From the NCBI GenBank assembly GCA_964490645.1, contig CAZBCL010000001.1, forward strand, positions 194,334 to 258,333: a stretch of 64,000 bases of DNA, given 5' to 3'. The translations under genes and the position numbers were made by a program. The notes under the pieces are model-generated. The model was not told the DNA's origin. It worked only from the letters and a program-made list of their open reading frames with translations, and did not search any database. Positions 31,785 through 58,025 of this stretch are shown piece by piece (the first letter of the stretch is position 1; every line of letters begins with the position of its first letter). Source of the DNA: an uncultured Spirochaetia bacterium. Lineage in GTDB: Bacteria > Spirochaetota > JAHITG01 > CAZBCL01.

Positions 31785-32113
31785 TTAATTCACGGCGAGT
31801 TTAACTATCCGATACGATTTCATATGAAGCAGGTGAAAATTCGGAATCATGTATATCAACACTCTTCATAAAAAAGATTAATAAATTCTATACTATTTAC
31901 ATTTTATGGCACATATCCCCCGATCTATTATTTAAAATCCTGTTATTATTGCATTGTTATACAGTTTGTTTTGTAGTTGTATTAATATGTTCCAACGATA
32001 ATATAATTGATATACAATACATTTCTTCGCCCCATTTACTATCAGATATACTATTCTGCTGCACTATGAGACTGCCATGAATAATAATTAATTACGTTGT
32101 TTTTATGATTATC
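31785..32113. repeat. Direct repeat copy A (329 bp), 328/329 identical to copy B.
   Basis: Aligned by eye base for base with 33897..34225. Single G/A difference at 32079 vs 34191. Confidence 0.9.
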
Positions 32114-33737
32114 TGTTACTTTTTTCTTTTTTTACAACCACTAAATGCGTATAGTTTGAATCAATAGTATATTTATACTTTTCTTTTAATTGAAACGCGT
32201 CCAGTACTTTTGTTTGAAGCAGCGCCAATTCATCCTTATAAACAATAAAATAATCAGGATCATTCCGTAGAATCGGCTCTATTGTCGGATTTTGAGAAAA
32301 GGAAACCGTGCTATAATTTTCAAAATATTTTAATAAGTACATATTTACACATAAAGTGTTCTTTTTATCAATTTGATTAATAATCTTTTCCACATCTACT
32401 GATATTTCTTTAACTTTCTGATCAGTATGTAATGTTAAAAACCGCCAACACCTACCAATAGGACTGCCGATAATGGCTGTTACTAATAATACTATTACTA
32501 TCCCTGTAAGGATATATAATACAGTTTTATTGTTTTTCGTTGTGCTTTTTTGTATCGTATGCGTATCATTACTTTCATGTGCGGTCTTCCGTGCATTGCA
32601 AAGCAAACAATATTTTCCGGAAATAATACTGCTTGCAATTACTTCTAATCGATGCAAACCAACAACAAACGCCAAAAATGCAAAACTATATATTTGTGTA
32701 AAATGCCAGCTGCATTCTGTCAAAAACGGACAATTTTGCATTAATACTAACTTCGGCAATTGCAGTAATAAAATTTCCGGACATAAAAGACTTATATATA
32801 AAAATGATTTCGTATTGATTAAAATCTTTTTAAGTATAGATATATTTATTATGAGCCATGGATGCATTAACAAATACACACCAACCTTAAAAACGTTATC
32901 CCCGTATTCCCCGTTTTTTGAAACCAGCGCCATATTATACGTCATGCTATGTGCGATTGAATATGAATAGTGCGAATAATGCTTTATTAATAGTGTTGCA
33001 CCAATAAAGTATACTCCACTTATAAGTAATGTAATCAAAGCCGTTTTTCTCATCTCTTTTTTAAGGAAAAGAAAAAACGCAAACAGTATCATATAGACAG
33101 CCATTTCTTCTTTAATCAAAAGAATTGCCGCTAAGCATATATAATATGCAAATTTATTATTTTTTATAATAATAAAATAAAACGCCCATATAATTGCCGG
33201 CAAAAACAGCATATCAGGATGAAAACCGTACACACTATCATTGAACAATCGTATATGATTCGGGATAATCAAGTATAATAATGCAACAAGAAATGGAAGA
33301 AGCCGAAATGTATTGGTATTATCTTTCGGACGTATATCTAACGACGTGATAGTTGTGTCAACTATTGCATAAACTGGAAATAGTGCCGAAACATACGCCA
33401 ATGTCCATAGCACTAAAAGGGCAATTGCCGATTTAAATAACGCAACAACCGGAAGAAAAAGAAGTAATAGTAAATATGCGTGTATCCCAAGCTGAAAACC
33501 ATATATGTTTTCATAAAAAAAATGTCCATGCAATGAGTTATTTAATACTTGATAATATAAAAACAAATCAGAACAATATTTCAAATTATTGAAATGCCAC
33601 AGCTTATAAAATAAAAAGAAAACAAATGCGACACCAAAAAGTATCAATAAACTAAAATGAAAACTTTTCGCGGCAGCTGCTTCATTAACAGCAAGCGCAT
33701 CTGATGACGGAAGTTGTGATTGTACGTTTCTCTTCAT
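32109..33737 (-). CDS. Polytopic membrane protein of unknown function (possible GT-C-fold or DUF2079-like), 542 aa.
   Basis: At least 12 hydrophobic helices. Rich in F/L/Y/K. The stop codon lies inside repeat copy A. Confidence 0.5.
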   Translation of the reverse strand: MKRNVQSQLPSSDALAVNEAAAAKSFHFSLLILFGVAFVFFLFYKLWHFNNLKYCSDLFLYYQVLNNSLHGHFFYENIYGFQLGIHAYLLLLLFLPVVALFKSAIALLVLWTLAYVSALFPVYAIVDTTITSLDIRPKDNTNTFRLLPFLVALLYLIIPNHIRLFNDSVYGFHPDMLFLPAIIWAFYFIIIKNNKFAYYICLAAILLIKEEMAVYMILFAFFLFLKKEMRKTALITLLISGVYFIGATLLIKHYSHYSYSIAHSMTYNMALVSKNGEYGDNVFKVGVYLLMHPWLIINISILKKILINTKSFLYISLLCPEILLLQLPKLVLMQNCPFLTECSWHFTQIYSFAFLAFVVGLHRLEVIASSIISGKYCLLCNARKTAHESNDTHTIQKSTTKNNKTVLYILTGIVIVLLVTAIIGSPIGRCWRFLTLHTDQKVKEISVDVEKIINQIDKKNTLCVNMYLLKYFENYSTVSFSQNPTIEPILRNDPDYFIVYKDELALLQTKVLDAFQLKEKYKYTIDSNYTHLVVVKKEKSNR

Positions 33738-33896: not shown

Positions 33897-34225
33897 TTAA
33901 TTCACGGCGAGTTTAACTATCCGATACGATTTCATATGAAGCAGGTGAAAATTCGGAATCATGTATATCAACACTCTTCATAAAAAAGATTAATAAATTC
34001 TATACTATTTACATTTTATGGCACATATCCCCCGATCTATTATTTAAAATCCTGTTATTATTGCATTGTTATACAGTTTGTTTTGTAGTTGTATTAATAT
34101 GTTCCAACGATAATATAATTGATATACAATACATTTCTTCGCCCCATTTACTATCAGATATACTATTCTGCTGCACTATGAGACTGCCATAAATAATAAT
34201 TAATTACGTTGTTTTTATGATTATC
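33897..34225. repeat. Direct repeat copy B (329 bp).
   Basis: See copy A. The two copies are offset by exactly 2112 bp. Confidence 0.9.
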
Positions 34226-34370: not shown

Positions 34371-35318
34371 ATGTATCAACGAATGCCATGCATTATACGT
34401 ATCGGAATAATTATATTCATACTCGGAACGATATCGATATCACATGCTGAAATCATGCGTGTTGCCGTAATGGATTTAAATCCGCAAGGTGTTGATGAGA
34501 ATACTTCACGTGGTGTCAGCGACCTTATCCGCGGAGAACTCATTGGCCGCGAAAATCTGATTATTGTCGAACGTGGTCAAATGAATCGTATTCTTGAAGA
34601 ACAGGGGTTTCAGCAATCAGGCTGTTCCGATACCGAATGTGCGGTACAAATAGGAAAATTACTAAGTGCACAATACATGATACTCGGATCAGTAACAAAA
34701 TTCGGCACGACATTCACCATATCCGTTCGCATGGTTGATGTTGAAAAAGGGACCGGGATTGCCAGTGAATCGACTGATGCTCATGGTGAATCAGAATTAC
34801 CGGGGACAACACGTTATCTTGTTAATAATCTTGTTGAGAAAATCAATACTGCCCGCTCACAATCAACACAAACACCATCACGCAAAATAAAAACAGACTC
34901 ATCTCAAAAAACACGAAAGAATACATCATTACACCAATTCCGCAACAATGCTCGCCCATTATTACGGACATGCGCATATATTGGTTATGCAGGAGCACTC
35001 GGAATGGGGGTTATGGGAATAATGGCAAATACTGAACTAAAAACATATAAAAACGAATCAGAAGATCTGTATCAGAAATACAACAAAGAACCGAGTTCCC
35101 AAAACTGGGAAAGTTATGAATCGCATTATACTACAATGAAAGACACGCAAAAAAAGCGGAACTCATATTATGCAATGAGTGTCGGTTTTTGTGCAGTCTC
35201 AACGGTTCTTTTCCTCATTCCGGGTCCTGCTGCAACTGCCGGGACATTCATACGTGAACATATTGTTCTTGTACCAACTGCTGATACCACAAGCATTTAT
35301 ATTAATTATAGGTTTTAA
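34371..35318 (+). CDS. Secreted protein with an N-terminal LpoB/CsgG-fold-like domain and C-terminal hydrophobic segments.
   Basis: MRVAVMDLNPQG...LIIVERGQMNRILEEQGFQQSGCSD...AVQIGKLLSAQYMILGSVTKFGTTFTISVRMVDVEKG follows the LpoB/CsgG-type pattern. GGGAG ribosome-binding site. Confidence 0.5.
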   Translation: MYQRMPCIIRIGIIIFILGTISISHAEIMRVAVMDLNPQGVDENTSRGVSDLIRGELIGRENLIIVERGQMNRILEEQGFQQSGCSDTECAVQIGKLLSAQYMILGSVTKFGTTFTISVRMVDVEKGTGIASESTDAHGESELPGTTRYLVNNLVEKINTARSQSTQTPSRKIKTDSSQKTRKNTSLHQFRNNARPLLRTCAYIGYAGALGMGVMGIMANTELKTYKNESEDLYQKYNKEPSSQNWESYESHYTTMKDTQKKRNSYYAMSVGFCAVSTVLFLIPGPAATAGTFIREHIVLVPTADTTSIYINYRF

Positions 35319-35343
35319 TTGATTTGAGGAGGAAAACAGGTAT

Positions 35344-36879
35344 ATGAAAAATACACCATTATTTACCGGTATTATTATATGCGCTATTATTGCAGTACTT
35401 ATTCTCTCATGCACTAAAGTCCCTGAATTAAGCCCGCGTGATGAGAGTCGGGAACAAATAGATCCGTCAGACAGCAATCCCGGTGAACGTCATTTTGGTC
35501 CGGGCATATCATGGAATCCCACAAACGGATATTTTATTCCCGATAGCTGTACAATTGCGTTATGGCATTTTGATAATAATTTCCGTGATGTTTTTAATCT
35601 CCATGAATTCACTAATGAGAATGCGGTGCTGGTTGATTCTCCCTTTGGACGGGGAGTCGAACTGAATGGGGCTGATGCACTCCTGTACTGCAATGCATTA
35701 CGCGGCTATGATCACGCATTAACCATTGAAATGTGGGTTAAACCATATGATCAGACAACATCGGGAATACTGATTGATACATGGGCGGGCGCACCTGTAT
35801 TATACGGACCAACTAATCAACGCTCATTCAGTTTATCATACGCTATGGATGAAACACTGCATCGGAATATTTCACCTGACGGATATAGTATAGCTTCAGC
35901 AGCAACCATGAACGGCATCGGTTCTGAGTTAATGTATGTTGTATATACCTGTGATACCTCCGGCGAAAAAATATACATTAACGGAGAAGAAATTGAAAAT
36001 CTGCATCGACCAACCCCCCGTATCAATGATACCGCAAAAACCTATCTCTCAATAGGCGGAAACCGTCCAAATATGACTGACTTCTTTCATGGTATGATTG
36101 ATATGGTTAGAATTTCATCGGTTGTACGGTTCCCGAATGAAATTCATGAATACTGGAATATGGCATCCTCAAAGGTCATGCAATGGAAATGTCAATCGTA
36201 TATTGATGCGGAAGCAAATACTACCGCAACTTTGAAAGATAAGGCTACTGATCAAACTATGTCAAGTATACAAAATGTTTCTCTCAGTTCTTCCGGTGTT
36301 ATCGGCAAATCACTTGATTTTGCCGGGAATGGTTATATTAACGTCGGAATGAGAACGATAAGCAATGAAATGTCTATCAGTTTTTGGTTTAACCGGCAAT
36401 CTATTCCTCTCAACAGCGGTTTCACCAATTGTATGGTTTCATATAATCAAGGTGAAGGTGAAAACTCACCTAATTATGATTGCCGTATATTTTTAAGCGG
36501 CACCAATAATATTCATGGGCGCACATACACACAACCCCCATCAGCTTCAGACCGCGTTGAGGATATTTTCGCAAATACTATACTGTATAATAGTTCATGG
36601 CATCATGTTGTTATTATTCTAACCAATACAGCAAGTGACTCAAAACTGCACATGATTATTGACAATAAAATAACCTATAATGGAACCGGGACAGCCCCTA
36701 ACCTTCCGCGATTATTTGATTCAACGATAAATGCGTCCTTTTTCCTTGGTGCTTTTGACACTGCAACGCACCTTTACTCCGGAAAACTTGATGAAGTAGG
36801 ATTATGGGATCGTGCTTTAAATGATTGGGAAGTAGAATTATTGTATAATAACGGGTATGGGCGAAATCCGTTTAATTAA
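35344..36879 (+). CDS. Lipoprotein with two concanavalin-A-like/LamG (Laminin_G_3-type) domains.
   Basis: Lipobox ILSC. Two jelly-roll LamG-like blocks (ALWHFDNNF...LTIEMWVKP and KSLDFAGNGYINVG...SFWFN...SWHHVVII...LGAFDTA...LDEVGLWDRAL). GGAGG ribosome-binding site. Confidence 0.65.
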   Translation: MKNTPLFTGIIICAIIAVLILSCTKVPELSPRDESREQIDPSDSNPGERHFGPGISWNPTNGYFIPDSCTIALWHFDNNFRDVFNLHEFTNENAVLVDSPFGRGVELNGADALLYCNALRGYDHALTIEMWVKPYDQTTSGILIDTWAGAPVLYGPTNQRSFSLSYAMDETLHRNISPDGYSIASAATMNGIGSELMYVVYTCDTSGEKIYINGEEIENLHRPTPRINDTAKTYLSIGGNRPNMTDFFHGMIDMVRISSVVRFPNEIHEYWNMASSKVMQWKCQSYIDAEANTTATLKDKATDQTMSSIQNVSLSSSGVIGKSLDFAGNGYINVGMRTISNEMSISFWFNRQSIPLNSGFTNCMVSYNQGEGENSPNYDCRIFLSGTNNIHGRTYTQPPSASDRVEDIFANTILYNSSWHHVVIILTNTASDSKLHMIIDNKITYNGTGTAPNLPRLFDSTINASFFLGAFDTATHLYSGKLDEVGLWDRALNDWEVELLYNNGYGRNPFN

Positions 36880-45957: not shown

Positions 45958-46188
45958 TGTATATATTCCTTTATGTATATGTGTTGATAGAGTGTATCAT
46001 TAAATTAAAAAAAATGGAATAGTGTATGATTCATATTATAGGAGGAAATGTACAAGCGAACAGAAGCACCGTGTGCCCTGTCCGCCGTTGGAAGTTTCTT
46101 TTGTTATCACATACTGACCATGAGCAGCAGGTCTGTATGTTTCCGGTTACTGTTGCCGGAACTCAACCACATTCTCAGTACCGGCAGG

Positions 46189-46428
46189 TTATACTTCCTG
46201 CCGATGTGCAAGATAATCACTCAACTTATTTGCAATTCGGGTAATAGCAGTATCAAGATATTTCGGATTGCTTAATTTTTCCTGAAGTTTCTTCCGTTCA
46301 TCATCAGTAATATGATGAATGTTATACGGACCTCTTACTTTCCCGTTTTGACTATTCATTGTTACATCCTTGTAACCCGGACGAAGCCGGTTAATCGAGG
46401 CGACCATCCATGGTCTTAATCCCTCCAC
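46189..46428 (-). CDS. Small protein, possibly an anti-sigma-28 FlgM-like factor (weak).
   Basis: C-terminal ERKKLQEKLSNPKYLDTAITRIANKLSDYL resembles the FlgM C-terminal helix pattern (G-Y-x-V-D...I-A-x-K-L). Divergent from the cheX-cheY operon. Confidence 0.3.
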   Translation of the reverse strand: MEGLRPWMVASINRLRPGYKDVTMNSQNGKVRGPYNIHHITDDERKKLQEKLSNPKYLDTAITRIANKLSDYLAHRQEV

Positions 46429-46607
46429 TATTTAATATCGACTGATTGATAAAAACCTTAACAGTAAAATTGAAAATATTTCACAGTTGAGAACATTGTA
46501 TAATAATTACCATATTTTATGTTAACTTTATTATCAAACCCGCGCGTATCCATAATCCAATAAATAATATATATAGTGCAGTGTCTTTTAGAAATAATGA
46601 TATTATC

Positions 46608-46636
46608 TTGACACTATATAGAATATGAATTATTAT
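46608..46636 (+). promoter_or_regulatory. Sigma-70-type promoter TTGACA-N17-TATTAT upstream of cheX.
   Basis: Consensus -35 and near-consensus -10 at optimal spacing, about 45 bp before the cheX ATG. Confidence 0.45.
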
Positions 46637-46683
46637 AGGTGTTCACAATGTGAAGCGTGCATCGACACGATACAAGGAAATCT

Positions 46684-47154
46684 ATGCAAGTTGAATATGT
46701 AAATCCGTTTATTATCGGCGCTATTGAGGTATTTGAACAAATTGCGTCAATAGAATTAAAAAAGCAATCAATCGCCTTAAAAGATGATTCACGACCAACA
46801 CATGAAATTGCTATTGTTATCGGTGTGTCCGGATATTTGGAAGGGCAAGTTATTTATAGTTTTAAGGAACATACCGCCGAGCGCATTGTTTCTTCAATGA
46901 TGCCGAATAGTCCTCCTGAAAAACAAAAAGAATATATGGAAAGCGCTATTGGTTCACTCGCAAATATGATAACCGGTCGGGCAACAATCCTGCTCGCAGG
47001 AAAACAACAAGTTCTTCGCATCACTCCGCCGGCAATTATTATCGGTGAAAACATGGATTATAAATTCGTTACCAATAAAACACTTTCGGTATCATTCACT
47101 TCACGCTTTGGAACAACTGAAATCAATGTCGCCTTAACGGTAGCCGGCAAATAA
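46684..47154 (+). CDS. cheX: Chemotaxis CheY-P phosphatase CheX.
   Basis: MQVEYVNPFIIGAIEVFEQ... about 156 aa. CheC/CheX/FliY-family fold pattern. AAGGAA ribosome-binding site. Confidence 0.8.
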   Translation: MQVEYVNPFIIGAIEVFEQIASIELKKQSIALKDDSRPTHEIAIVIGVSGYLEGQVIYSFKEHTAERIVSSMMPNSPPEKQKEYMESAIGSLANMITGRATILLAGKQQVLRITPPAIIIGENMDYKFVTNKTLSVSFTSRFGTTEINVALTVAGK

Positions 47155-47170
47155 AAAGTGGTTGAACAAT

Positions 47171-47530
47171 ATGGCAAAAGTTCTGTTAGCAGATGATTTA
47201 GCATTTATCAAAATGGTTCAGCAGGAAGTACTCAAAGATAATGGATTTGAAGTTGTCGGCGATGCTGTTGACGGTGTTGATTGTGTTGAAAAATATAAAA
47301 AACTGCGCCCTGATATTGTCATTATGGATATTACCATGCCGCGTATGGATGGATTGAATGCATTACGGGCAATTTTAAGTCAGGATAAAAAAGCACGTGT
47401 TGTAATATGCTCAGCATTAGGACAGCAAAAATTGATTATTGAAGCCATAAAAGCAGGGGCAAAGGATTTTATTGTCAAACCCTTCCAGCCTGAACGACTT
47501 CTTTCCGCATTACATAAAGCCATGAAATGA
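47171..47530 (+). CDS. cheY: Chemotaxis response regulator CheY (single REC domain).
   Basis: KVLLADD, DIVIMDITMPRMDG, ICSALGQ, K in DFIVKPF: canonical receiver-domain residues. Confidence 0.88.
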   Translation: MAKVLLADDLAFIKMVQQEVLKDNGFEVVGDAVDGVDCVEKYKKLRPDIVIMDITMPRMDGLNALRAILSQDKKARVVICSALGQQKLIIEAIKAGAKDFIVKPFQPERLLSALHKAMK

Positions 47531-48969
47531 AACGTATCGTCTGGATAATTCTGATAACAGCACTATTTTACTCAACGTCTTCGGCATTCCTCTTTTTTAA
47601 AAAGAAACCTCCCCGCTCGGAAAAAATTACCGTGAGTGTTCATGACAAACCATACCGCCTTATAGCGATACTTCCTTTTACAAACCGTACTGGAAAAAGT
47701 GAGTTTGATTATCTGAGTCTAAGCATACCCCATTACCTGCATTCCGCACTCACCTCAATAACAAACGTTATCGTATCAACGAATGATATTGCTGTTGCAC
47801 CGGCATTACTAACCAATACCAATGTTATACTTTCTTATGACAAAGACTTTAATCGCACGGTGAAGGTTCTTTCAATGAAAAGCGTTGTATCACTCTTAAC
47901 GCAATGCACTGCATGCCATTCGTTAGCGGCAACCGCAACAAACCTTGCGGTTGACTATGTGGTATACGGATCATTTACTGGTTCATCTCGGGATAATCTC
48001 TCATTTAAAACATATTTGTATTTCGTACAGCGCCAAAGCAATGCCGGTCCGTTTGAATTATCGTATCACGGCGATGCACTGAATGCGCCTCCAAAAATAG
48101 CAGCCCAAATAAAAGCAGCGTTTTATCATACACCCGGCGGCGCATTAACCGTTACTTCCGATCCGCCGGATGCCCTCATTTATGCGAATGGACGATACTG
48201 CAATCGCACACCTTTCACCATAGAATATTTGCCGGTTGGCACATATGTTATAACAGTCCGAAAAGACGGATGGCACACACAATCAAATACTATTTGCATG
48301 ACAACAAATGGATATGCCTTAACAAACATTACACTACTGAATGCGCGAACTGCTGCACCAATTGCTATCACGACTTCTCCGACGAATGCATTAATTATGT
48401 TTGATGCACGCCCGATCGGAAAAACACCATTGATCGTTTCAAACCTTGTTCCCGGGCGTTATCGAATACGCTTGAGTGCTCCCGGATATATTAATGAGTA
48501 TCATCGAATACGTATTAATAAAACCGCGAACCGCCCGCTTATGATAACGATGCAGCCGAAAACTCGTACAAATGAAATCGCACGTATTTATCACCAATCA
48601 CGTTGTCTTATGTGGACATTCACGGGGACAGGACTTGCACTGACTATCGGAGCGGTAATTGCTATCGGAGAAGTTGAACGAAATCAGGAATTGCCGGCAA
48701 CGATTGCATATGATAATCCGAACAAGGAGACGCTCATTAATGAATACTATCGAAAAGAAACACTGTGGCGATCTGCAGCAATTGCCTGCGGTTCACTTTC
48801 ATTAGTATCATATGTTACTGCAATTATTTTTATGATAAAAGCAGCGAATTATTCAAGTTATGAATACGGCATGATATTAAATACGCCATCAGATCGTATA
48901 GTGCATCCACTCCCTGCGATAATCAGCCCGCACTACTGTGCCGTACAGCTGATACAAAAACAATTTTAA
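47527..48969 (+). CDS. Secreted PEGA-domain protein with a C-terminal TM anchor.
   Basis: Two PEGA-like blocks (LTVTSDPPDALIYANGRYCNRTPFTIEYLPVGTYVITVRKDGW; IAITTSPTNALIMFDARPIGKTPLIVSNLVPGRYRIRLSAPGY). Signal peptide. ATGA overlap with the cheY stop. Confidence 0.65.
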   Translation: MKRIVWIILITALFYSTSSAFLFFKKKPPRSEKITVSVHDKPYRLIAILPFTNRTGKSEFDYLSLSIPHYLHSALTSITNVIVSTNDIAVAPALLTNTNVILSYDKDFNRTVKVLSMKSVVSLLTQCTACHSLAATATNLAVDYVVYGSFTGSSRDNLSFKTYLYFVQRQSNAGPFELSYHGDALNAPPKIAAQIKAAFYHTPGGALTVTSDPPDALIYANGRYCNRTPFTIEYLPVGTYVITVRKDGWHTQSNTICMTTNGYALTNITLLNARTAAPIAITTSPTNALIMFDARPIGKTPLIVSNLVPGRYRIRLSAPGYINEYHRIRINKTANRPLMITMQPKTRTNEIARIYHQSRCLMWTFTGTGLALTIGAVIAIGEVERNQELPATIAYDNPNKETLINEYYRKETLWRSAAIACGSLSLVSYVTAIIFMIKAANYSSYEYGMILNTPSDRIVHPLPAIISPHYCAVQLIQKQF

Positions 48970-48970
48970 T

Positions 48971-49240
48971 ATGCTATCATATTTCTCAAATGTATCGGCA
49001 TTTCATATTCCGGCGCTGAAGACAGCCGGGTACGGCAAGGGATACCGCAGCGCACACATTCGTTTATTATATAAACACGTAATAATTTATAAAACGATTG
49101 ATGACATTTTAAAACCAACGTGGTATACTATGCTGCATTTTACCTATGCATATACTGTATGCAGCAGCTTTCAGTGCAGCGCAATAAGCACATTATCAAC
49201 ACGCAGTGCGGTTGAGATATTTTTACGGCGGTATACATGA
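48971..49240 (+). CDS. Small hypothetical ORF (89 aa), uncertain.
   Basis: Begins 2 nt after the PEGA gene stop and overlaps the next ORF by 4 bp (ATGA). Composition is unusual (Y/H/T-rich), so it may be non-coding. Confidence 0.25.
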   Translation: MLSYFSNVSAFHIPALKTAGYGKGYRSAHIRLLYKHVIIYKTIDDILKPTWYTMLHFTYAYTVCSSFQCSAISTLSTRSAVEIFLRRYT

Positions 49241-49653
49241 AATTAAGTGTCGCAGAAATTGCATTTATCGTATTTAGCATCATTATCATTGTTATTACCA
49301 TTCATGAGTATGCAGGACGACGCATAGGACCATGTCGCATACTTGACACGGAAAATTATGTATATTCTGTCATGCCGAATGCACCATGTCATCTTAAAAT
49401 ATATTATAACCCCGAAGCGAAACGTGATGTTTATGTAATACCATTAATTTATGATAAAAAACCGAAAAGCAGAAATGATAAATGGAAAGAAATGAGCAGT
49501 TTAGTAAAATATGTTGCTCGGTCTAATATTACCGGATCACCGACACATATCTGTGCATACAGCGGTCGTTATTGTCGCATTCAACATGGTGAACTTATTT
49601 TTATCGACCAGCCCGAGGACATCTCTAATACACGCATTAATTCCAATCAATAG
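49237..49653 (+). CDS. Hypothetical membrane-anchored protein (138 aa).
   Basis: N-terminal TM (IAFIVFSIIIIVITI). Several Cys residues. No family recognised. Confidence 0.4.
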   Translation: MKLSVAEIAFIVFSIIIIVITIHEYAGRRIGPCRILDTENYVYSVMPNAPCHLKIYYNPEAKRDVYVIPLIYDKKPKSRNDKWKEMSSLVKYVARSNITGSPTHICAYSGRYCRIQHGELIFIDQPEDISNTRINSNQ

Positions 49654-49682: not shown

Positions 49683-50270
49683 TTAGGAATCAAATAAAAT
49701 AACTTCTACCAACTCGCAAATAAGATGATATATAATCTGATGCCCTTCTTGAACACGCGGAGTACGCCGAGCAGGAACAATAATCTCATGTGAGCAGACA
49801 CCACGCAATTTCCCGCCGTCTTTACCAAGGAGTGCAATAGTCTTACATTTTTGCGTATGTGCAGCTTTCACGGCTTCAAGACAATTCGGTGAATTGCCGC
49901 TTGTTGTAATAACAATAATGACGTCACCTTCCTGACCCAATCCTTCTACCTGTCGCGAAAATACGGTTTCATATGAATAATCATTACTCCATGCCGTCAT
50001 GGTCGATGTATTTGCTGAAAGAGCGATTACCGGCAATGCCCGCCGCTCGCGTTTTTCAAAACGCCCGATAAGCTCTGCGGTCCAATGCTGTGCATCAGCG
50101 GCACTTCCTCCATTACCGCATATAAGAACTTTATTCTGATTCGCCAGTGCTGCAGCAATTATCTCAGCTGCCGTAATAATATTTTTTGTTAATTTCTTAT
50201 GAATTTCGTCATGCACTCTTCGGGATTCATCAAAAGTTTGCTGTATTATTGTATTAAATATTTCATTCAT
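49683..50270 (-). CDS. gmhA: Phosphoheptose isomerase (D-sedoheptulose-7-phosphate isomerase), SIS domain.
   Basis: LICGNGGSAADAQHWTAEL and IIVITTSGNSPN motifs of GmhA. 195 aa. Confidence 0.9.
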   Translation of the reverse strand: MNEIFNTIIQQTFDESRRVHDEIHKKLTKNIITAAEIIAAALANQNKVLICGNGGSAADAQHWTAELIGRFEKRERRALPVIALSANTSTMTAWSNDYSYETVFSRQVEGLGQEGDVIIVITTSGNSPNCLEAVKAAHTQKCKTIALLGKDGGKLRGVCSHEIIVPARRTPRVQEGHQIIYHLICELVEVILFDS

Positions 50271-50459: not shown

Positions 50460-53400
50460 TTATAATCGTTTCAATAATTGATATGCCTGCACATTTGCCG
50501 GATCATATCGCAATGCTTGAACACATCGGCGCTGCGCCGTTTTTGCATTGCCCGCAGTCAGATCCAATTCCGCTAATCGAAGCAATGCATCAACATTATG
50601 TGGATCACGCTGCAGTGTTTTTTGATAATACTCGCGTGCTTGTATTTTATCACCGCTGCGTAAATAAATATCACCAAGCTGCAGATCAAAATGAAACCCT
50701 TCATCAGTTTCACGTGATAATGCTTCAAGTTTCGATATTGCAACATCAGGCATTCCAACTTGATAGTATACCATTGCTTCTATTTCACGAATATTAAAAT
50801 TATTACATCGCCGATTATATTCATTTGCCAATATAGTATACTTCTGACATAACGGACCGTATTTTTCCGTATCTTTCGGAATTAAACCGAAATAATGCCG
50901 CGCAAGTTTAATATTTATATTTTTATATGTCGGATCAATATTCGCAATATCTTTGTAGCGTTGTATCATTTCATTAGTATTTCCAAGTCGGCGCATCATT
51001 TGCGCATCAAAATAATACCGATCAATAACAACTTGTGATGCAGAATAATTCGCCGGATTAACTTCTATGAGTTCAGAGCAGAGATTATACATTTTAGTTT
51101 CAAGATGATCATATTCTTTTTGACGCTCATCCGGCGCCATCCGATCAATTGAATTCATTGTATCTAAAATGCCGGTCAACTCAATTAATCTGCCTTCATG
51201 TTCCCACACCCGATCAATTGAACGCAGCAGCCGCATATACTTTTCATCACCGCTTGACGGAGAAATATAATTAAGCACTCTACTGCGATGTTCAAATAAA
51301 TCCCGTAATTCATCAGCTGTTGCTCGTTTATACAAACTCAACGGCATTTGATATGCTGCCCGAATACCGGTATTTTTAATAATCGCCCCTTCTCCTGCCC
51401 ATGCACGCAGATCGGCATCAGCACAGATAAATGTCGAGATAATTGATTCAACGGAATTGAGTTTGTTCAATGCAAGCACGGTCTGTAATGTCATTGTATC
51501 AAGCCGCCGCTGTACTTGCGGAAGATCAAACTCAATCGGAATATCTGCTCCCATAAGAATATATTCCGAACCGTAATGTGCCTGAAACAACGCAGCATGA
51601 TCAAATACCGAAATGAATGTTTGAATAAAAGATTTTATATCAGTATTGTTTATATCATACATCGGCAGCAGAACACATACATATCCATCATCCGACATGC
51701 GTTCATGTATTCCTGATAATACAGAATATGATAATTCTGCACCGGTAGTCAGAGCATTTATTTCATACCGCATAATAATACTGTCATATTTTTCACCAAG
51801 ATAATGTATAGCAGATGGAGTTCCATAGCGGATTTTTAACCGCTCATCGCTCCATACTTTGTATGAGAAGAGGTCGAAATACTCCTTTTGTAATGCGACA
51901 TCATGATATGACGGTGAAAGATAGGTTATTGTTTTTAATTTATACAATCCTGCAGATCCCAAAGTAATTCCGAGACCACTGCCGGCAACCAGCACTGAGG
52001 TCGGTTGTTTATGCAGCAACAACGGTATATGAGCCAATAACTGCTGCATTACAACATCATTGCGTGATGCAAGGCAGGCATATCCGTTTTCCAATAGTAC
52101 TGCATTATTTTCTGACGCTTCATCAATAATCGTAAACGCCGTTCCAAATTCTTCAGCCGTTGTTTCAAAGCGCCGGTTCAGTAATGCCGCACGATGAAGA
52201 AGTGTATCACTCGCCCATGGTCGCTGCTCAAGCAATTCCCCCGCCTGCGACTGCAGTTCAGGAGCTTTATTAAATGCACCAATTGCCATAAGACGTATAT
52301 CCGACGGAATAATGATGATTAAACAAAGGAAAACAATCAGTATTACAAATGGGAAAATCGCTTTTTGAATACGAATGACCGTAGTGCGTGTGAATGCATT
52401 GAGAATTGCCGCTATGCCCAGTATCCCCACTGCACTTATGAACGAATAATATGAACCGATTGCCGCAACACCACATAATGCAATACCACAGACACCGAAT
52501 ACTGTTCCAAGTAAAAACATTCGTGCATTTTTTCTCCGTACTGTCATTGCGTCGCTGATAAAATCCCGCAATAAATGCGGCATACAAAATAATTGCCCAA
52601 GCATTAATCCCCATACAAATGCGGGAATAATAATAATCAGCGCATAGCGATACGTCAGCCATACATAAAAAAACGGCATCATCAGATTGCGCGACGTCAT
52701 TGCTGCTGCCTGATTCATCTCAGAAAATAACTGATTTAGATACATAACCGAATGTACCGGAATACCACGAAGCAGCAATAATGATACAAACACGGTCAGT
52801 ATACTTATCAGTACCACTGCTGATTCTATGTGTGCAGTAGGATTATTCTTTTTAAATGCAATTGAACGTACCAGCCACCCGACACCGACTCCTGTTATAA
52901 AGAATACCAGTATGCGAAGTGTAATTCCCCATGAAGTCCCACCGACAAGATTGCCTAGATACCAGACCAGTAAAGCCGTTCCGGTCATTCCAACACCGAT
53001 ACAAAATGCGGATACCTGCTTGAATATACGTATTATTTGCTGCTGACGCAGTGCATGTATTTCCGGTGATTGACTGGTATCAGATACATGCATATGCTGT
53101 ACACGAGCATCCGAGGCTGATGTATGCTCACCAGCCGGTAATGTCCGTACTCCAAGTGCGCGTCCGCGATAGAGCCATAACAAACCAACACCCGGCAGAA
53201 TACTAACCCCGCATAAAACTGCAATAATAGAAATATCCATATGCGGTAATACCATGAAGCCAACAAGTGCAAAACCAAATGCAGCACTGAGAATAAATAC
53301 CCCTGCAGCTGAAAGCACATGCTGCTCTTTGCGTTTAAAACTAACAATACATTCCCTTATTGCTTGAAATCCAAAGTGTACGGCAAATACCGGAACCGCA

Positions 53401-53771
53401 AAAAAAACAAATGCGCCGATACTCTGAGCAATAATTAACCCCGATAGTGTAGCATTCAGCACATTAAACAACGGAGCATACAACCATGCAACAGCGCGAA
53501 TAATAACCGGTGTTAAAACCGTAAAAATAATAAATACTATCAATGCAAAGAGTGCACTATTTCTCGGACCGTGAAAAACCCGATCCCGCAGGCTCGTCAT
53601 TGAAGAATGTAAACTCATTATACTTAATAGAACAAGTGAACAACTGCCTATTAATACCGGCATTATCGTTCCGTCGCCCCCCAACATTAATGCAAGTGAA
53701 CGAAGCCAAACGGGCAGTATTCCGCCGCAGCCGATACCAAAAAATATTATTGCAAAATAAAATATATTCAT
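50460..53771 (-). CDS. Giant fusion protein: polytopic membrane domain + spermidine-synthase-like (PABS-fold) domain + C-terminal TPR repeats (1103 aa).
   Basis: About 14 TM helices in the N-terminal half. Gly-rich Rossmann loop VLVAGSGLGITLGSAG. TPR repeats at the C-terminus. Its ATG overlaps the TAA of the upstream paralog by 1 nt. Confidence 0.7.
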   Translation of the reverse strand: MNIFYFAIIFFGIGCGGILPVWLRSLALMLGGDGTIMPVLIGSCSLVLLSIMSLHSSMTSLRDRVFHGPRNSALFALIVFIIFTVLTPVIIRAVAWLYAPLFNVLNATLSGLIIAQSIGAFVFFAVPVFAVHFGFQAIRECIVSFKRKEQHVLSAAGVFILSAAFGFALVGFMVLPHMDISIIAVLCGVSILPGVGLLWLYRGRALGVRTLPAGEHTSASDARVQHMHVSDTSQSPEIHALRQQQIIRIFKQVSAFCIGVGMTGTALLVWYLGNLVGGTSWGITLRILVFFITGVGVGWLVRSIAFKKNNPTAHIESAVVLISILTVFVSLLLLRGIPVHSVMYLNQLFSEMNQAAAMTSRNLMMPFFYVWLTYRYALIIIIPAFVWGLMLGQLFCMPHLLRDFISDAMTVRRKNARMFLLGTVFGVCGIALCGVAAIGSYYSFISAVGILGIAAILNAFTRTTVIRIQKAIFPFVILIVFLCLIIIIPSDIRLMAIGAFNKAPELQSQAGELLEQRPWASDTLLHRAALLNRRFETTAEEFGTAFTIIDEASENNAVLLENGYACLASRNDVVMQQLLAHIPLLLHKQPTSVLVAGSGLGITLGSAGLYKLKTITYLSPSYHDVALQKEYFDLFSYKVWSDERLKIRYGTPSAIHYLGEKYDSIIMRYEINALTTGAELSYSVLSGIHERMSDDGYVCVLLPMYDINNTDIKSFIQTFISVFDHAALFQAHYGSEYILMGADIPIEFDLPQVQRRLDTMTLQTVLALNKLNSVESIISTFICADADLRAWAGEGAIIKNTGIRAAYQMPLSLYKRATADELRDLFEHRSRVLNYISPSSGDEKYMRLLRSIDRVWEHEGRLIELTGILDTMNSIDRMAPDERQKEYDHLETKMYNLCSELIEVNPANYSASQVVIDRYYFDAQMMRRLGNTNEMIQRYKDIANIDPTYKNINIKLARHYFGLIPKDTEKYGPLCQKYTILANEYNRRCNNFNIREIEAMVYYQVGMPDVAISKLEALSRETDEGFHFDLQLGDIYLRSGDKIQAREYYQKTLQRDPHNVDALLRLAELDLTAGNAKTAQRRCVQALRYDPANVQAYQLLKRL

Positions 53772-56700
53772 TAATACCTCTGCATTAACGTACGCATTCC
53801 TTCAGCCGCTTCTGCATTATTAGGATCAATACGTAATGCTTTTTGAAAATATCGCCGAGCATTATCGCCGTTTCCTTCGGATAATGCAATGAAACCAAGA
53901 TACGCTAATGCATTCGGATGCCGCGGATTAAACTTCAGCACTGTCTGAAATGCCAGTGCCGCTTCTTTTCTATTTCCCGGTTCAATTTGCTCCATTAACA
54001 TATAATACCTGCCGAGAGCATAGTATCCCCGTGGATTTTCCGGATCATGGGCAACTATTGTACGATACTTTTCTCCTGCCTCAAAATAGTTGCCGGCATA
54101 AAATAATACATCAGCATACGCACCGATAATGTCATCTTCCGTCCAATTTCGATTAAATATAAGCGCTTTATCCAGCATGGTAAATGCCTTCGTATAATTT
54201 GTTCGACTAACATAATAATCTGCCAGCATTACCCAAATGCGTTTATATTCAGGATACAGTTTTGTTATCTTTTCCATATATTCACGGTAAACAGCATCCT
54301 GTTTATAATTCCGCTCAGCGTATTGCTGATAGTAACCTGCCATATATTTCAATGCTTCAGGATGATGCGGATTGTATTCAAGAATCTGCTGCATATTACT
54401 CATTGCTTTTACTGCAAGTAATGAACGATGCAGATGGGAATGCGTCTCCGGAAGCTGAACCGTATCAAGGTAGAGCATACGAGCTTTGTGTATCATATCC
54501 TGCATAAACGCCATACCAAGGTCAAGCCCTGTTGCCGAATAGTGATCAATATAATTGGTAACTGCAACAACATCGCTATATAAGGCACGCTGTTCTTCAA
54601 TAGATACTGTTGTATTCGGATGCCGTAAAAATCGACGTTGCGGCAAATACTGCCCGTCGCTATTTATCTGATAGTGAACCGTATCATGATCAAACACATC
54701 TTCGGGGTCATCAGTAAGAAATGTTGCAAGCAAATACTGCAGCGATACAATGTGCCGGCGTTCCAGATCAGAAAATAAAAATAGATCTGAAAGATTCTTT
54801 TCCGCACGATTATAATCACAGATTGGTTTTTTCTGTGCAGCAAGTATAATATAATCCGTTCCGGCAAGTATTTCAAAAACGAGAATATGTTTAAATTCAC
54901 GCCGCAGTGCGGCAACTGATGATACTAATGCTTCAACACCGCCATCGCGTATCATACAACGCTCAGCATATATTCCGTTCTTGGTCATTCGTCGTTTTAC
55001 AAGTTTATAAAACTCACCGGTCCGACAAACCCCGATATGTTCATCAGGTATGGCGGGAGTATTATTAACAATAATATCATAATGTTTCCTTGTACACTGC
55101 AAATGCATTCTGCCTGAAAGCGGCACCACGGAAACGGCATTTTGTTTATAAACATCGCCGTTCAACAGTTTCGTATACCGCTGATACGTATCGACATACC
55201 CGGGAAACAACGGAGCAACATCAATAGTCATTAACTCACGATATAAACTTGCGCTTGCCGCAGTAATACCAACACCGCCTTCCATAATAAACATACTCAC
55301 CGGACGATCGGCAAATATAATCGGCAAATGTGCAGCAAGAACATTTCCCCGACTGCTGATGCCGGTAGTAACATCATCAGTCCCATTCAGTATAAACTGT
55401 GTAGTATTATCAATTGAAATAAGCTGGGCAAATCCATCCGGGGTCAGTGCAGCAAAATCAACCTTATCAGCAAGAACATCCCATCCTGAATATCCCGAAT
55501 CAGGTGTCCGATATGCACTGCCGGATAATGCTGACAGCGGAAATGTTCCGCGTAGTACAACGGCAAAAACAATCGTGATAATAAAGCCGCTTAATAGCGC
55601 ATAATTAATACCCTGCAGTTTTTCATTAATACGACGAGCGACTGCAATGATATACACTATTGATAATCCTAATACCGCATACCATAGTATTCGAAGCATC
55701 TGCGCATGCATCAATACTCCGCTGAATACATATAAAGCGCCAATACCGATAAGAAGCACGAAAAGACTATTGTAATTAATACGAAGTGCCGACTTTTTTG
55801 CATCAGCATCGAATCGAATCAGTGCCGCATATAATGACAATCCGATACCGATTCCAATAAACGCCATCGTTTTTAATGCAATACTATAACTATGAATAAA
55901 ATAGCCTGCCGGTGTTTTATGAATATACTCCAGCTCATGTATACTAATACGCGGCAAACTTACCGCTGCTATCCAAACCCCGATACCAAGAAGGACTAAT
56001 CCCAATACTCCCGTTATAGAATGCCGACGCAGTATTTGTATATACTGTACAATAATTATGCCTGCAATAATTGCCGTCAGCAATGCTGCAATAAATGCTG
56101 ATCGTTCCAATAGTGTCGGGGCAAGAATAGATTTCAATAATGAACTAAAAACAACTATACTGATAAATCCCCAAAGAACACTTACCGAAGAAACGATACT
56201 ATACCATGACCATTCTGAAGATACCGTTTTTTGTATACTATTGGCAGTGTGATTTTTCAGTGTAGCTCGATATACCACTGTAAGGATAATACAGCCGATA
56301 CCAAGAACAATACGCATCGGCATTAAGCCGACATAGGTCAATAACCATCCGCTTGCCGCCTGACCAATAATTGAACCGACACCGAGAAAAATAACAATCC
56401 GTGTTGTATCGATACTCTCATGATTGGTATGACCGTGCAGCGGAATATGTATGAAAAGACGCATTACCATAAACAGCGGCAGTGTTACCAAACCAATACA
56501 GGAGAGCACCATCCAAATATACATAAACACCATTGTTCGTTCATATGGCTGATATGCATATGTACCAACAAACACGAATAAATATTTAAATAACGGCCAT
56601 AGTATAAGCAAAATAGCAGGTATATATAAACCGAATAATGCATTATATTGTTTCATTCCGACATGCACTGCTGTTCCGGTACGTTGATTTTTAAAATTAA

Positions 56701-56884
56701 TCAGTACTGATGCAGCAATACCGGATAAAATACAGATGATAACAAGAATACGAGGGAACGCATCAAAGCCAAATACAAATCCGGCAGATTGCTGAAGCGT
56801 GTTAATAAAAACAGCAAGCACTGCTCCGACTGTAATATATGGAAGAAAAGTAAAATGTTTATCAGTATGCATGTGTGTTTCCAT
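53771..56884 (-). CDS. Paralogous giant fusion protein: membrane domain + spermidine-synthase-like domain + TPR repeats (1037 aa).
   Basis: Same architecture as the neighbour. FIMEGGVGITAASAS Rossmann loop. C-terminal TPRs (AYLGFIALSEGNGDNARRYFQKALRIDPNNAEA). Confidence 0.7.
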   Translation of the reverse strand: METHMHTDKHFTFLPYITVGAVLAVFINTLQQSAGFVFGFDAFPRILVIICILSGIAASVLINFKNQRTGTAVHVGMKQYNALFGLYIPAILLILWPLFKYLFVFVGTYAYQPYERTMVFMYIWMVLSCIGLVTLPLFMVMRLFIHIPLHGHTNHESIDTTRIVIFLGVGSIIGQAASGWLLTYVGLMPMRIVLGIGCIILTVVYRATLKNHTANSIQKTVSSEWSWYSIVSSVSVLWGFISIVVFSSLLKSILAPTLLERSAFIAALLTAIIAGIIIVQYIQILRRHSITGVLGLVLLGIGVWIAAVSLPRISIHELEYIHKTPAGYFIHSYSIALKTMAFIGIGIGLSLYAALIRFDADAKKSALRINYNSLFVLLIGIGALYVFSGVLMHAQMLRILWYAVLGLSIVYIIAVARRINEKLQGINYALLSGFIITIVFAVVLRGTFPLSALSGSAYRTPDSGYSGWDVLADKVDFAALTPDGFAQLISIDNTTQFILNGTDDVTTGISSRGNVLAAHLPIIFADRPVSMFIMEGGVGITAASASLYRELMTIDVAPLFPGYVDTYQRYTKLLNGDVYKQNAVSVVPLSGRMHLQCTRKHYDIIVNNTPAIPDEHIGVCRTGEFYKLVKRRMTKNGIYAERCMIRDGGVEALVSSVAALRREFKHILVFEILAGTDYIILAAQKKPICDYNRAEKNLSDLFLFSDLERRHIVSLQYLLATFLTDDPEDVFDHDTVHYQINSDGQYLPQRRFLRHPNTTVSIEEQRALYSDVVAVTNYIDHYSATGLDLGMAFMQDMIHKARMLYLDTVQLPETHSHLHRSLLAVKAMSNMQQILEYNPHHPEALKYMAGYYQQYAERNYKQDAVYREYMEKITKLYPEYKRIWVMLADYYVSRTNYTKAFTMLDKALIFNRNWTEDDIIGAYADVLFYAGNYFEAGEKYRTIVAHDPENPRGYYALGRYYMLMEQIEPGNRKEAALAFQTVLKFNPRHPNALAYLGFIALSEGNGDNARRYFQKALRIDPNNAEAAEGMRTLMQRY

Positions 56885-57167
56885 GAGCCTATATTATAAT
56901 GACCATTTTAGTAAAGTCAAATCAAAAGGATAGGCAACACTATATTTTATAGAAAATAAAAAATAGTACTAAAGTATTTTACATGATTTTTATCTCCCGC
57001 GAAAATTATTTTAAAAAAAAATAATCCTGTGATTAAGAATTAATACGTTTCCGACGATACTATGATTAGCCGAAAGAATGCACTGTAAATTCGGAAAAGT
57101 TGTTTTTTCGTTTTTACAGCAGCCGCAGAGGCAAGGACGCTTCTGTGTAATTTCAAGGAGGAAGAAA

Positions 57168-58025
57168 ATGATTATTAATCACAATCTAAGCGCGATCTTT
57201 GCACATCGCACACTCAAATTCACGAACTGGGAAGTTAACAAAAGCATGGAAGCTCTCAGTTCGGGAATGCGCATTAACCGAGCCGGTGACGACGCATCCG
57301 GTCTTGCCGTTTCGGAAAAAATGCGTTCACAGATTCGCGGTCTTCGCCAGGCAGAACGCAATGCCGAAGACGGAATCAGTTTAATTCAGGTTTCTGAAGG
57401 ATATCTGCAGGAAAGCCAGGACATCCTTCAACGCATCCGCGAATTATCAATTCAGTCTTCAAACGGTGTTTACACCTCTGAAGACCGTATGCAGATTCAG
57501 GTTGAAGTCAGCCAATTGGTTGACGAAATCGATCGTATCGCATCACAAAGTGAATTCAACAGGATGACGCTCCTGACGGGTCGTTTCTCCGATCCGCGTG
57601 CCGGCGGTATTCCGCTTGCATCAATGTGGTTCCACATCGGTCCGAATAAGGACCAACGAGAACGTGTCTATGTTGGCACTATGTCAGCAAAAGGACTTTG
57701 GGTACGTCGGCAGGATGACAGCATTGTCTCTATCTCAACCCCGGAATTAGCAAACGCTACTATCGGTGTTGTCGATCGTGCACTGACCAAAGTTTCAAAA
57801 CAGCGGGCAGATCTAGGCGCTTACCAAAACCGTATGGAACATGCTTCACGCGGTTTAATGTCTGCGTACGAAAATATGCAGGCAGCTGAAAGCCGTATCC
57901 GTGACGTTGACATGGCTGAAGAAATGGTTAATTTTGTTACTCATCAAATTCTTGTTCAGAGCGGTACCGCTATGTTAGCACAAGCAAATCTAAAGCCGCA
58001 GACTGTTCTTCAGTTACTTGGCTAA
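57168..58025 (+). CDS. flaB: Flagellar filament core flagellin FlaB (286 aa). The listed ORF carries a 30-aa spurious N-terminal extension.
   Basis: [18 protein letters not shown]...[26 protein letters not shown]...C-terminal [31 protein letters not shown] ribosome-binding site 7 nt upstream. Confidence 0.95.

Follow-up and report, generated by a model that had tools for sequence, protein, structure and literature searches.

A conserved cheX-cheY-PEGA gene trio with an altered CheX active site in an uncultured spirochaete clade

Introduction

Why would the gene of an exported membrane protein be joined end to end to the genes of two chemotaxis regulators? The question is raised by a stretch of 64,000 nucleotides from an uncultured Spirochaetia bacterium (GenBank assembly GCA_964490645.1, contig CAZBCL010000001.1, positions 194,334 to 258,333 of the forward strand; hereafter the window, with positions counted from its first letter), in which a cheX-like gene, a cheY gene and a gene for a 480-residue protein with PEGA domains follow one another on the same strand (Table 1). 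An earlier note on this DNA, made from the sequence alone, had read the three genes as one unit and had suggested that they could link motility control to the cell envelope or the periplasmic flagellum.

Spirochaete motility rests on periplasmic flagella with lineage-specific periplasmic motor structures, and the termination and coordination of signalling by phosphorylated CheY (CheY-P) in these bacteria are still being worked out, mostly in Borrelia. The locus described here is shared by a whole clade, and throughout it the one CheY-P phosphatase that can be recognised at the locus lacks the residue held to be needed for its activity. This altered CheX is always encoded together with a new exported membrane protein that combines predicted TolB-N-like and PEGA domains. 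The trio hints at an unstudied link between the control of swimming and the cell envelope. Two testable questions follow: does this CheX still act as a phosphatase, and is the PEGA protein part of the motor or the envelope, or does it act as a signalling partner?

A three-gene core conserved in one uncultured clade

The program-made list of open reading frames (ORFs) of the window holds the genes at the same coordinates as the earlier note. As that note had stated, cheY follows cheX, and the cheY stop codon and the start codon of the PEGA gene share the ATGA at 47527-47530. The source gene calls and all relatives agree on the start codons: cheX (156 aa) probably begins at ATG 46684 and cheY (119 aa) at ATG 47171. 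No terminator-like site was found at the cheY/PEGA junction (47490-47560). Terminator-like matches elsewhere, among them two within cheY (47252-47279) and those in the PEGA gene, are not commoner than in shuffled sequence (6 versus 4.1 ± 2.2).

The near-consensus sigma-70 promoter that had been placed before cheX is present, with the form TTGACA-N17-TATTAT. It is the sole match with at most one mismatch across the 64-kb window; as chance alone would give about 1.2 matches of this quality somewhere in the window, its weight comes from its position inside the 255-nt divergent intergenic gap upstream of cheX. No sigma-28-type promoter was seen upstream of cheX on inspection by eye. In this genome, the trio is driven by its own predicted sigma-70-like promoter.

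The earlier note had proposed looking for synteny in related spirochaetes. When one genome of each GTDB species was scanned with a CheX profile, 80 loci were obtained, and the PEGA-family protein was located by an iterative search of all ORFs in those cheX loci. The relatives are Brevinema/Exilispira-like metagenome-assembled genomes (MAGs), an uncultured group within Spirochaetota. A PEGA-family gene stands directly after cheY in every locus with a CheX at least about 59% identical to the one described here (L002-L014), and no PEGA-family protein follows cheX in the 74 other cheX loci. On the contigs that encode CheX relatives, the PEGA-domain gene comes directly after cheX-cheY each time and the flanking genes vary. 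Starting from the PEGA side, the exhaustive profile search described below led again to cheX-cheY-PEGA, or to cheY fragments at contig ends; a metagenome scan with an alignment of a subclade of the PEGA family gave two loci, both with the trio, and three further CheX look-ups found the trio in each case. Thus, from the CheX side and from the PEGA side alike, about 16 distinct sequences carry cheX-cheY-PEGA with no exception. Relative to the cheY stop, the PEGA start lies at -4 (ATGA) or between +1 and +3 nt; only L008 (13 nt) and L096 (38 nt, according to the gene call of the source) depart from this. The three genes form a conserved, tightly coupled core that is specific to one uncultured clade related to Brevinema and Exilispira, and the proposal that they are one unit is borne out; the lack of synteny elsewhere that the earlier note had named among its grounds for refutation did not occur.

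The flanks of this core differ from genome to genome. Upstream of cheX lie apgM and an orphan gene (here), yebC, pgpA, rodA, a methyltransferase, a transposase or a class-Ib (tyrS/trpS-type) tRNA synthetase gene. The rodA gene comes after mreC-mreD-pbp2: in four loci of one subclade (L009, L094, L096 and L097), mreC-mreD-pbp2-rodA lies directly upstream of cheX-cheY-PEGA-ftsY on the same strand. In L013, a DDE transposase gene (70-1605) is directly upstream of cheX, so that rearrangement reaches the edge of the trio without disrupting it. Downstream, ftsY is the next gene after the PEGA gene, at 1-3 nt, in about 12 of the 16 loci. Its linkage is gone in the window, in the L004/L095 lineage and in L090, so that it has been lost from this position at least three times; a tblastn search with three FtsY proteins found no ftsY within the window. 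The downstream gene of the relatives encodes a GTPase of the signal recognition particle type, which was also considered as FlhF, an identity that would have tied the cluster to flagella. This was rejected: TIGR00064, the FtsY model, matches with 287-308 bits against a cut-off of 260.7, and the FlhF models are far below theirs.

Outside the clade, the nearest outgroup (L015-L019 and L030; Exilispira-like and 'Brachyspira' MAGs) has a Glu-bearing cheX without cheY, followed by a gene for a GCD14/PCMT-type methyltransferase (a tRNA methyltransferase). A protein of about 263 aa with no Pfam match is encoded after cheX in L025, L026 and L028. Neither cheY nor a PEGA gene is found among the outgroup cheX neighbours, which shows that the contexts of cheX change sharply at the clade boundary.

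The CheX of the clade lacks the catalytic glutamate

The first gene had been named cheX, and at the level of the family this name stands. Pfam CheX (PF13690) matches at 7.9e-15, with 55 bits against a cut-off of 27; the NCBIfam model CheX_Thtogales matches at 3.4e-28, below its cut-off; and Thermotoga maritima CheX gives the best solved-structure matches (1SQU/1XKO, 1e-14), with 3HZH_B, of the CheX-CheY3 complex 3HZH, also among the matches. What had gone unnoticed is the loss of the catalytic Glu throughout the clade. The active-site consensus of the CheC/CheX/FliY phosphatases is D/S-X3-E-X2-N-X21-P, with the Glu and Asn inserting into the CheY active site (PMC12887009). The site reads here S87-x3-S91-x2-N94-x20-P115 (P115/116), and Ser91 (46954-46956) stands at the position of the catalytic Glu. 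The T. maritima protein has the same S-x3-[E]-x2-N-x20/21-P spacing; aligned to it, SAIGELGN of the structure faces SAIGSLAN here and SAI/LxS/ALAN in the clade. The protein thus belongs to the CheX family by its sequence-level domain and fold, and departs from the consensus at the Glu.

In an alignment of the CheX ORFs from all fetched loci, the position of the catalytic Glu was occupied by Ser or Ala in all 16 clade loci, and Glu was kept in the 74 other loci (74/74); the catalytic Asn is invariant across the aligned loci. A protein search gave Ser, Ala or Thr at this position in 46 of the 64 CheX clusters. Judged by its sequence, then, the clade CheX keeps the catalytic Asn and has lost the acidic residue that normally enters the CheY active site. 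That residue is reported to be needed for the wild-type activity of CheZ and of the CheC/CheX/FliY phosphatases (PMC3035606). By the same paper, however, the amide side chain of RapH suffices for dephosphorylation, so that the clade CheX may simply stay active. The CheX substitution, the PEGA family and the gene linkage share one phyletic boundary. Since each of them is probably a single ancestral event, the shared boundary is suggestive and does not amount to statistical proof.

The second protein is a canonical single-domain response regulator (PF00072, 1.2e-28). Its receiver has the acidic pocket, phospho-acceptor Asp, Thr/Ser and Lys (D8, D9, D53, S82 and K104). Its best match in the PDB is T. 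maritima CheY (1TMY, 3.8e-42, over residues 3-118), and DD, MDITMP, CSA and KPF are conserved in the alignment of the two.

As in other spirochaetes, cheX of the same fold family lies directly upstream of a single-domain cheY, in operons that run flaA-cheA2-cheW3-cheX-cheY3 in Borrelia burgdorferi and cheA-cheW-cheX-cheY in Treponema. Unlike in those operons, neither cheA nor cheW is found upstream here or in any clade locus, and a membrane protein gene is joined to the 3' end of cheX-cheY; two Spirochaetaceae loci with cheX-cheY (L033 and L037) have no PEGA gene after them. The CheX proteins differ as well, with Glu in B. burgdorferi (E96, PMC12887009) and Ser or Ala in the clade.

The third protein belongs to a new family of predicted periplasmic membrane proteins

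The 480-aa protein had been described as having a signal peptide, two PEGA domains and a single C-terminal membrane anchor. The two PEGA domains were recovered as two stretches matching PF08308 (2.2e-25; 88.8 bits, with a cut-off of 20.8); they form beta-strands and sandwiches in a structure model (mean predicted local distance difference test score, pLDDT, 74.8) and match the transthyretin-like domain of carboxypeptidase D. Three hydrophobic segments were found, at residues 4-22, 360-383 and 419-437. The first is in line with the proposed signal peptide: it has no lipobox Cys and therefore looks like a type I signal peptide, and the model places a helix at residues 2-18 followed by a low-confidence linker. 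The other two are on two long antiparallel helices, which speaks for a hairpin in place of the single anchor. As the first of these helices is weak and below the standard threshold in several relatives, the membrane hairpin is likely but not certain, and a single span is also possible. G367 and G369 are conserved in the family. The C-terminal tail carries N-Y-D-D-V-N-I-G and ends in R-F in relatives; here it ends in K-Q-F.

The earlier description had missed, along with the helical hairpin, an N-terminal domain of about 170 residues with a fold like that of TolB-N, FlgT, CsgG and LpoB. Modelled alone, residues 30-205 reached a pLDDT of 87.8 and a predicted template modelling score of 0.85. The resemblance to LpoB, PelC and CsgG is one of fold only, since no sequence-level family was found for the domain: residues 1-208 had no match to Pfam TolB_N, CsgG or LpoB even at E<=10. 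Taken together, the model and the profile matches describe an exported protein whose TolB-N-like and two PEGA domains are predicted to be periplasmic and whose predicted hairpin would anchor it in the inner membrane. Another protein of this fold class is encoded elsewhere in the window, at 34371-36879, where a CsgG/LpoB-like protein, recognisable by sequence (Pfam CsgG, 3.4e-13), precedes a Laminin_G_3 protein.

Known proteins share parts of this architecture. The two bona fide PEGA domains are like those of other PEGA proteins (PF08308), such as Treponema pallidum TPANIC_0923, which by its locus number presumably does not adjoin the T. pallidum che operon, and the Leptospira lipoprotein of the LIC10124 family, whose model LIC10124_lipo matches weakly at 2.3e-5, far below its cut-off. 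TPANIC_0923 is merely listed in papers as a PEGA domain-containing protein. Unlike TolB, the PEGA protein has no beta-propeller after its N-domain; unlike the lipoproteins of the TolB-N fold class, it has no lipobox Cys, and it continues after its N-domain with two PEGA domains and a membrane hairpin. The comparison with the Vibrio flagellar LPHT-ring protein 8z5n_5, probably FlgT, is limited to the fold, as the PEGA protein shares neither the three-domain architecture nor the sequence of the H-ring protein FlgT.

The family evolves fast: the copy described here is 18-24% identical to its relatives, with the architecture and motifs kept. Its best-conserved regions are the N-domain and the second PEGA domain, and the least conserved is the loop between the C-terminal helices. 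An exhaustive profile search of 1.84 billion proteins gave 11,979 PEGA-containing representatives. Among the best 150 of these, the N-domain and the C-terminal module were found in ten family members only, the other PEGA proteins having neither; because the search was swamped by multi-PEGA proteins, the count of family members is a lower bound. When the PEGA protein or the family alignment was used in word-indexed searches, the identical protein and one relative came up, and otherwise only unrelated multi-PEGA proteins. The family comprises at least 10 clusters at 50% identity, and its architecture is not in Pfam. It thus represents a newly defined protein family and a previously undescribed membrane-anchored periplasmic protein.

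Possible roles of the PEGA protein

In the periplasm, other proteins with the TolB-N fold assemble around machines of the envelope, as Vibrio FlgT, CsgG and PelC do. Because the linkage to cheY is unbroken amid reshuffled flanks and because this fold recurs in periplasmic assemblies that include a flagellar ring protein, we tentatively favour a role linked to motility. We infer, with a confidence that stops just short of calling it probable, that the PEGA protein works with the motility apparatus. It would then most likely be a periplasmic scaffold or accessory element near the periplasmic-flagellar motor or the peptidoglycan, and would be produced in a fixed ratio with the CheX/CheY output pair. 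A link between motility and envelope is plausible from the sequences, and several observations weigh against it. The next gene in most relatives is the housekeeping gene ftsY, and its presence in the same operon means that operon membership does not imply a shared function. The roughly 16 genomes carry single-origin characters, so that the linkage, the origin of the family and the CheX substitution are not phylogenetically independent of one another. The TolB-N fold is unspecific, being shared by many periplasmic lipoproteins, among them the peptidoglycan-synthase activator LpoB, and mreCD-pbp2-rodA lies just upstream in four loci. No known flagellar protein matches the PEGA protein by sequence, and a literature search found no paper tying PEGA domains to chemotaxis or spirochaete motility, only T. 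pallidum proteome tables.

Alternatively, the operon may be one of convenience, with a PEGA protein of general envelope or peptidoglycan association (similar to LpoB or TolB), no role in chemotaxis, and a position after cheY that was simply inherited, as for ftsY, in compact spirochaete operons. We consider this a serious possibility, if a somewhat less probable one. In addition to ftsY (TIGR00064, above its cut-off) 1-3 nt after the PEGA gene in most relatives, the elongasome genes mreC-mreD-pbp2-rodA directly upstream in four loci and an N-domain fold common to LpoB, PelC and CsgG, it agrees with the distribution of conservation, which is highest in the periplasmic parts and lowest in the putative cytoplasmic loop. 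A rough Poisson estimate, given the breaks at the flanking junctions, puts the probability of seeing zero breaks at one junction at about 10%. What speaks against it is that the cheY-PEGA junction has never been broken whereas both flanks were broken repeatedly, with ftsY lost at least three times; that the PEGA family is found next to cheXY only; and that the clade in which the family arose is also the one whose CheX has lost the catalytic Glu. Were the linkage only historical, the locus would still document a conserved mixed operon, cheX-cheY-pegA-ftsY, and would correct the automatic annotation "CheX phosphatase".

The coincidence with the CheX substitution, together with the overlap or near-overlap with cheY, which suggests coupled translation, could also point to a signalling partner: a membrane protein whose short stretch in the cytoplasm, either the tip of the hairpin or, with a single span, the C-terminal tail, would tether or regulate the altered CheX/CheY pair. 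The state of the envelope or periplasm would thereby be coupled to the lifetime of CheY-P, or the pair would be localised at the membrane. In favour of such contacts, acidic and aromatic residues are conserved directly behind the first hydrophobic helix, and a Lys behind the second is invariant. However, the cytoplasmic part would comprise only about 30 residues and is less conserved than any other region, no CheY-binding motif of a known kind could be recognised, the coincidence rests on single evolutionary events, and the RapH precedent (PMC3035606) leaves room for an active CheX. We regard this explanation as unlikely.

A bolder form of the same idea, which we hold to be unlikelier still, is that CheX became a non-catalytic or partner-dependent CheY-P-binding protein and the PEGA protein its co-evolved partner, the two forming a transmembrane module that would make the lifetime or localisation of CheY-P depend on the state of the periplasm, of the peptidoglycan or of the periplasmic flagellum. 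Bacillus subtilis CheC, a weak phosphatase that is mainly a CheY-P-dependent regulator, is a precedent for a CheC/CheX/FliY member whose main role may be binding or regulation over catalysis. CheC keeps its E-x2-N sites and has the cytoplasmic CheD as its partner, whereas the clade CheX is without the Glu and its linked partner is a membrane protein. If true, the CheX-PEGA module would be a route of chemotaxis-output control not described in any bacterium.

Flanking ORFs and other features of the window

The small ORFs around the trio are outside the conserved unit: none of the three (79, 89 and 138 aa) has a homologue in any related locus. The earlier note had counted the two downstream ORFs as part of the operon, which does not hold, as they are unique to this genome, the 89-aa ORF is doubtful, and they occupy the place where the relatives carry ftsY. 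They were also considered as ftsY remnants, an idea rejected on the empty tblastn search. The 89-aa ORF is absent from a collection of 15 billion proteins and is probably a spacer and not a gene. The 138-aa ORF, a singleton cluster with no Pfam or NCBIfam match, is plausibly a real lineage-specific gene, and a promoter-like site at 49101-49129 (10/12) is possibly its own. The 267-nt stretch 3' of the PEGA stop has no significant fold (z-score -1.57) and no Rfam family.

A FlgM-like C-terminal helix had been proposed for the divergent 79-aa ORF, and a profile check against FlgM (PF04316) had been suggested. The identification as FlgM was rejected, since neither PF04316 nor TIGR03824 matched even at E<=10, no other Pfam or NCBIfam family gave a match, and no PDB entry did so at E<=10; BLASTP against a Salmonella FlgM sequence gave E=2.1. 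Its codon score is gene-like (+0.15, and +0.19 for the 56-aa version), the members of its cluster are all at least 90% identical, and a metagenome scan for it found no homologue. A 72-aa ORF of the source gene caller at 46026-46244 (+) shares sequence with the 3' end of the oppositely oriented 79-aa ORF; with a codon score near zero (+0.014), it is probably spurious.

Table 1. Features of the cheX-cheY-PEGA locus, with positions in the window.
Feature	Position	Strand	Remarks
Divergent 79-aa ORF, orphan	46189..46428	-	possibly 56 aa from ATG 46359 behind AAGGA site
Sigma-70-like promoter, TTGACA-N17-TATTAT	46608..46636	+	predicted; 11/12 match; 48 nt before cheX ATG
cheX-like gene, 156 aa	46684..47154	+	Pfam CheX 7.9e-15; non-canonical active site
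cheY, 119 aa	47171..47530	+	Pfam Response_reg 1.2e-28; canonical single-domain response regulator
PEGA-family membrane protein gene, 480 aa	47527..48969	+	homologues directly after cheY in all clade loci
Signal peptide / N-terminal hydrophobic segment (aa 1-24)	47527..47598	+	hydropathy segment 4-22; no lipobox Cys
N-terminal alpha/beta domain, TolB-N-like fold (aa 33-200)	47623..48126	+	motifs YRxIAxLPFxNxT, DY(I/V)xxG
Two PEGA (transthyretin-like beta-sandwich) domains, aa 204-270 and 279-343	48136..48555	+	Pfam PEGA and model
Two long antiparallel helices (aa 346-393, 400-441), predicted membrane hairpin with short cytoplasmic tip	48562..48849	+	model and hydropathy
C-terminal tail and stop codon	48850..48969	+	low model confidence
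89-aa ORF, probably non-coding spacer	48971..49240	+	codon score -0.009; uncalled in source assembly
138-aa orphan ORF, one N-terminal hydrophobic helix (segment 4-22)	49237..49653	+	codon score +0.126

Farther away, a flagellin gene (57078-58025) lies 7.4 kb downstream of the end of the 138-aa ORF and 8.1 kb from the PEGA gene. Two very large minus-strand proteins adjoin it within 50460-58025. The first (1103 aa) has numerous hydrophobic segments, a region like spermidine synthase and, in its C-terminal part, tetratricopeptide repeats (TPRs); the other, of 1037 aa, has TPRs as well. Both might be related to motility or the envelope. A second sigma-70-like site with an 11/12 match, TTGACA-N16-TACAAT, is found at 50304-50277 (-), about 7 nt before the gmhA start at 50270, a short spacing that suggests a leaderless or very-short-leader transcript or a wrong gmhA start codon. 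Finally, a perfect 300-nt direct repeat (31785-32084 and 33897-34196) flanks a DUF2079 membrane protein gene on the minus strand (32109-33737) with a low GC content (0.30). The arrangement could stem from an artefact of the assembly or from a recent event of insertion or duplication.

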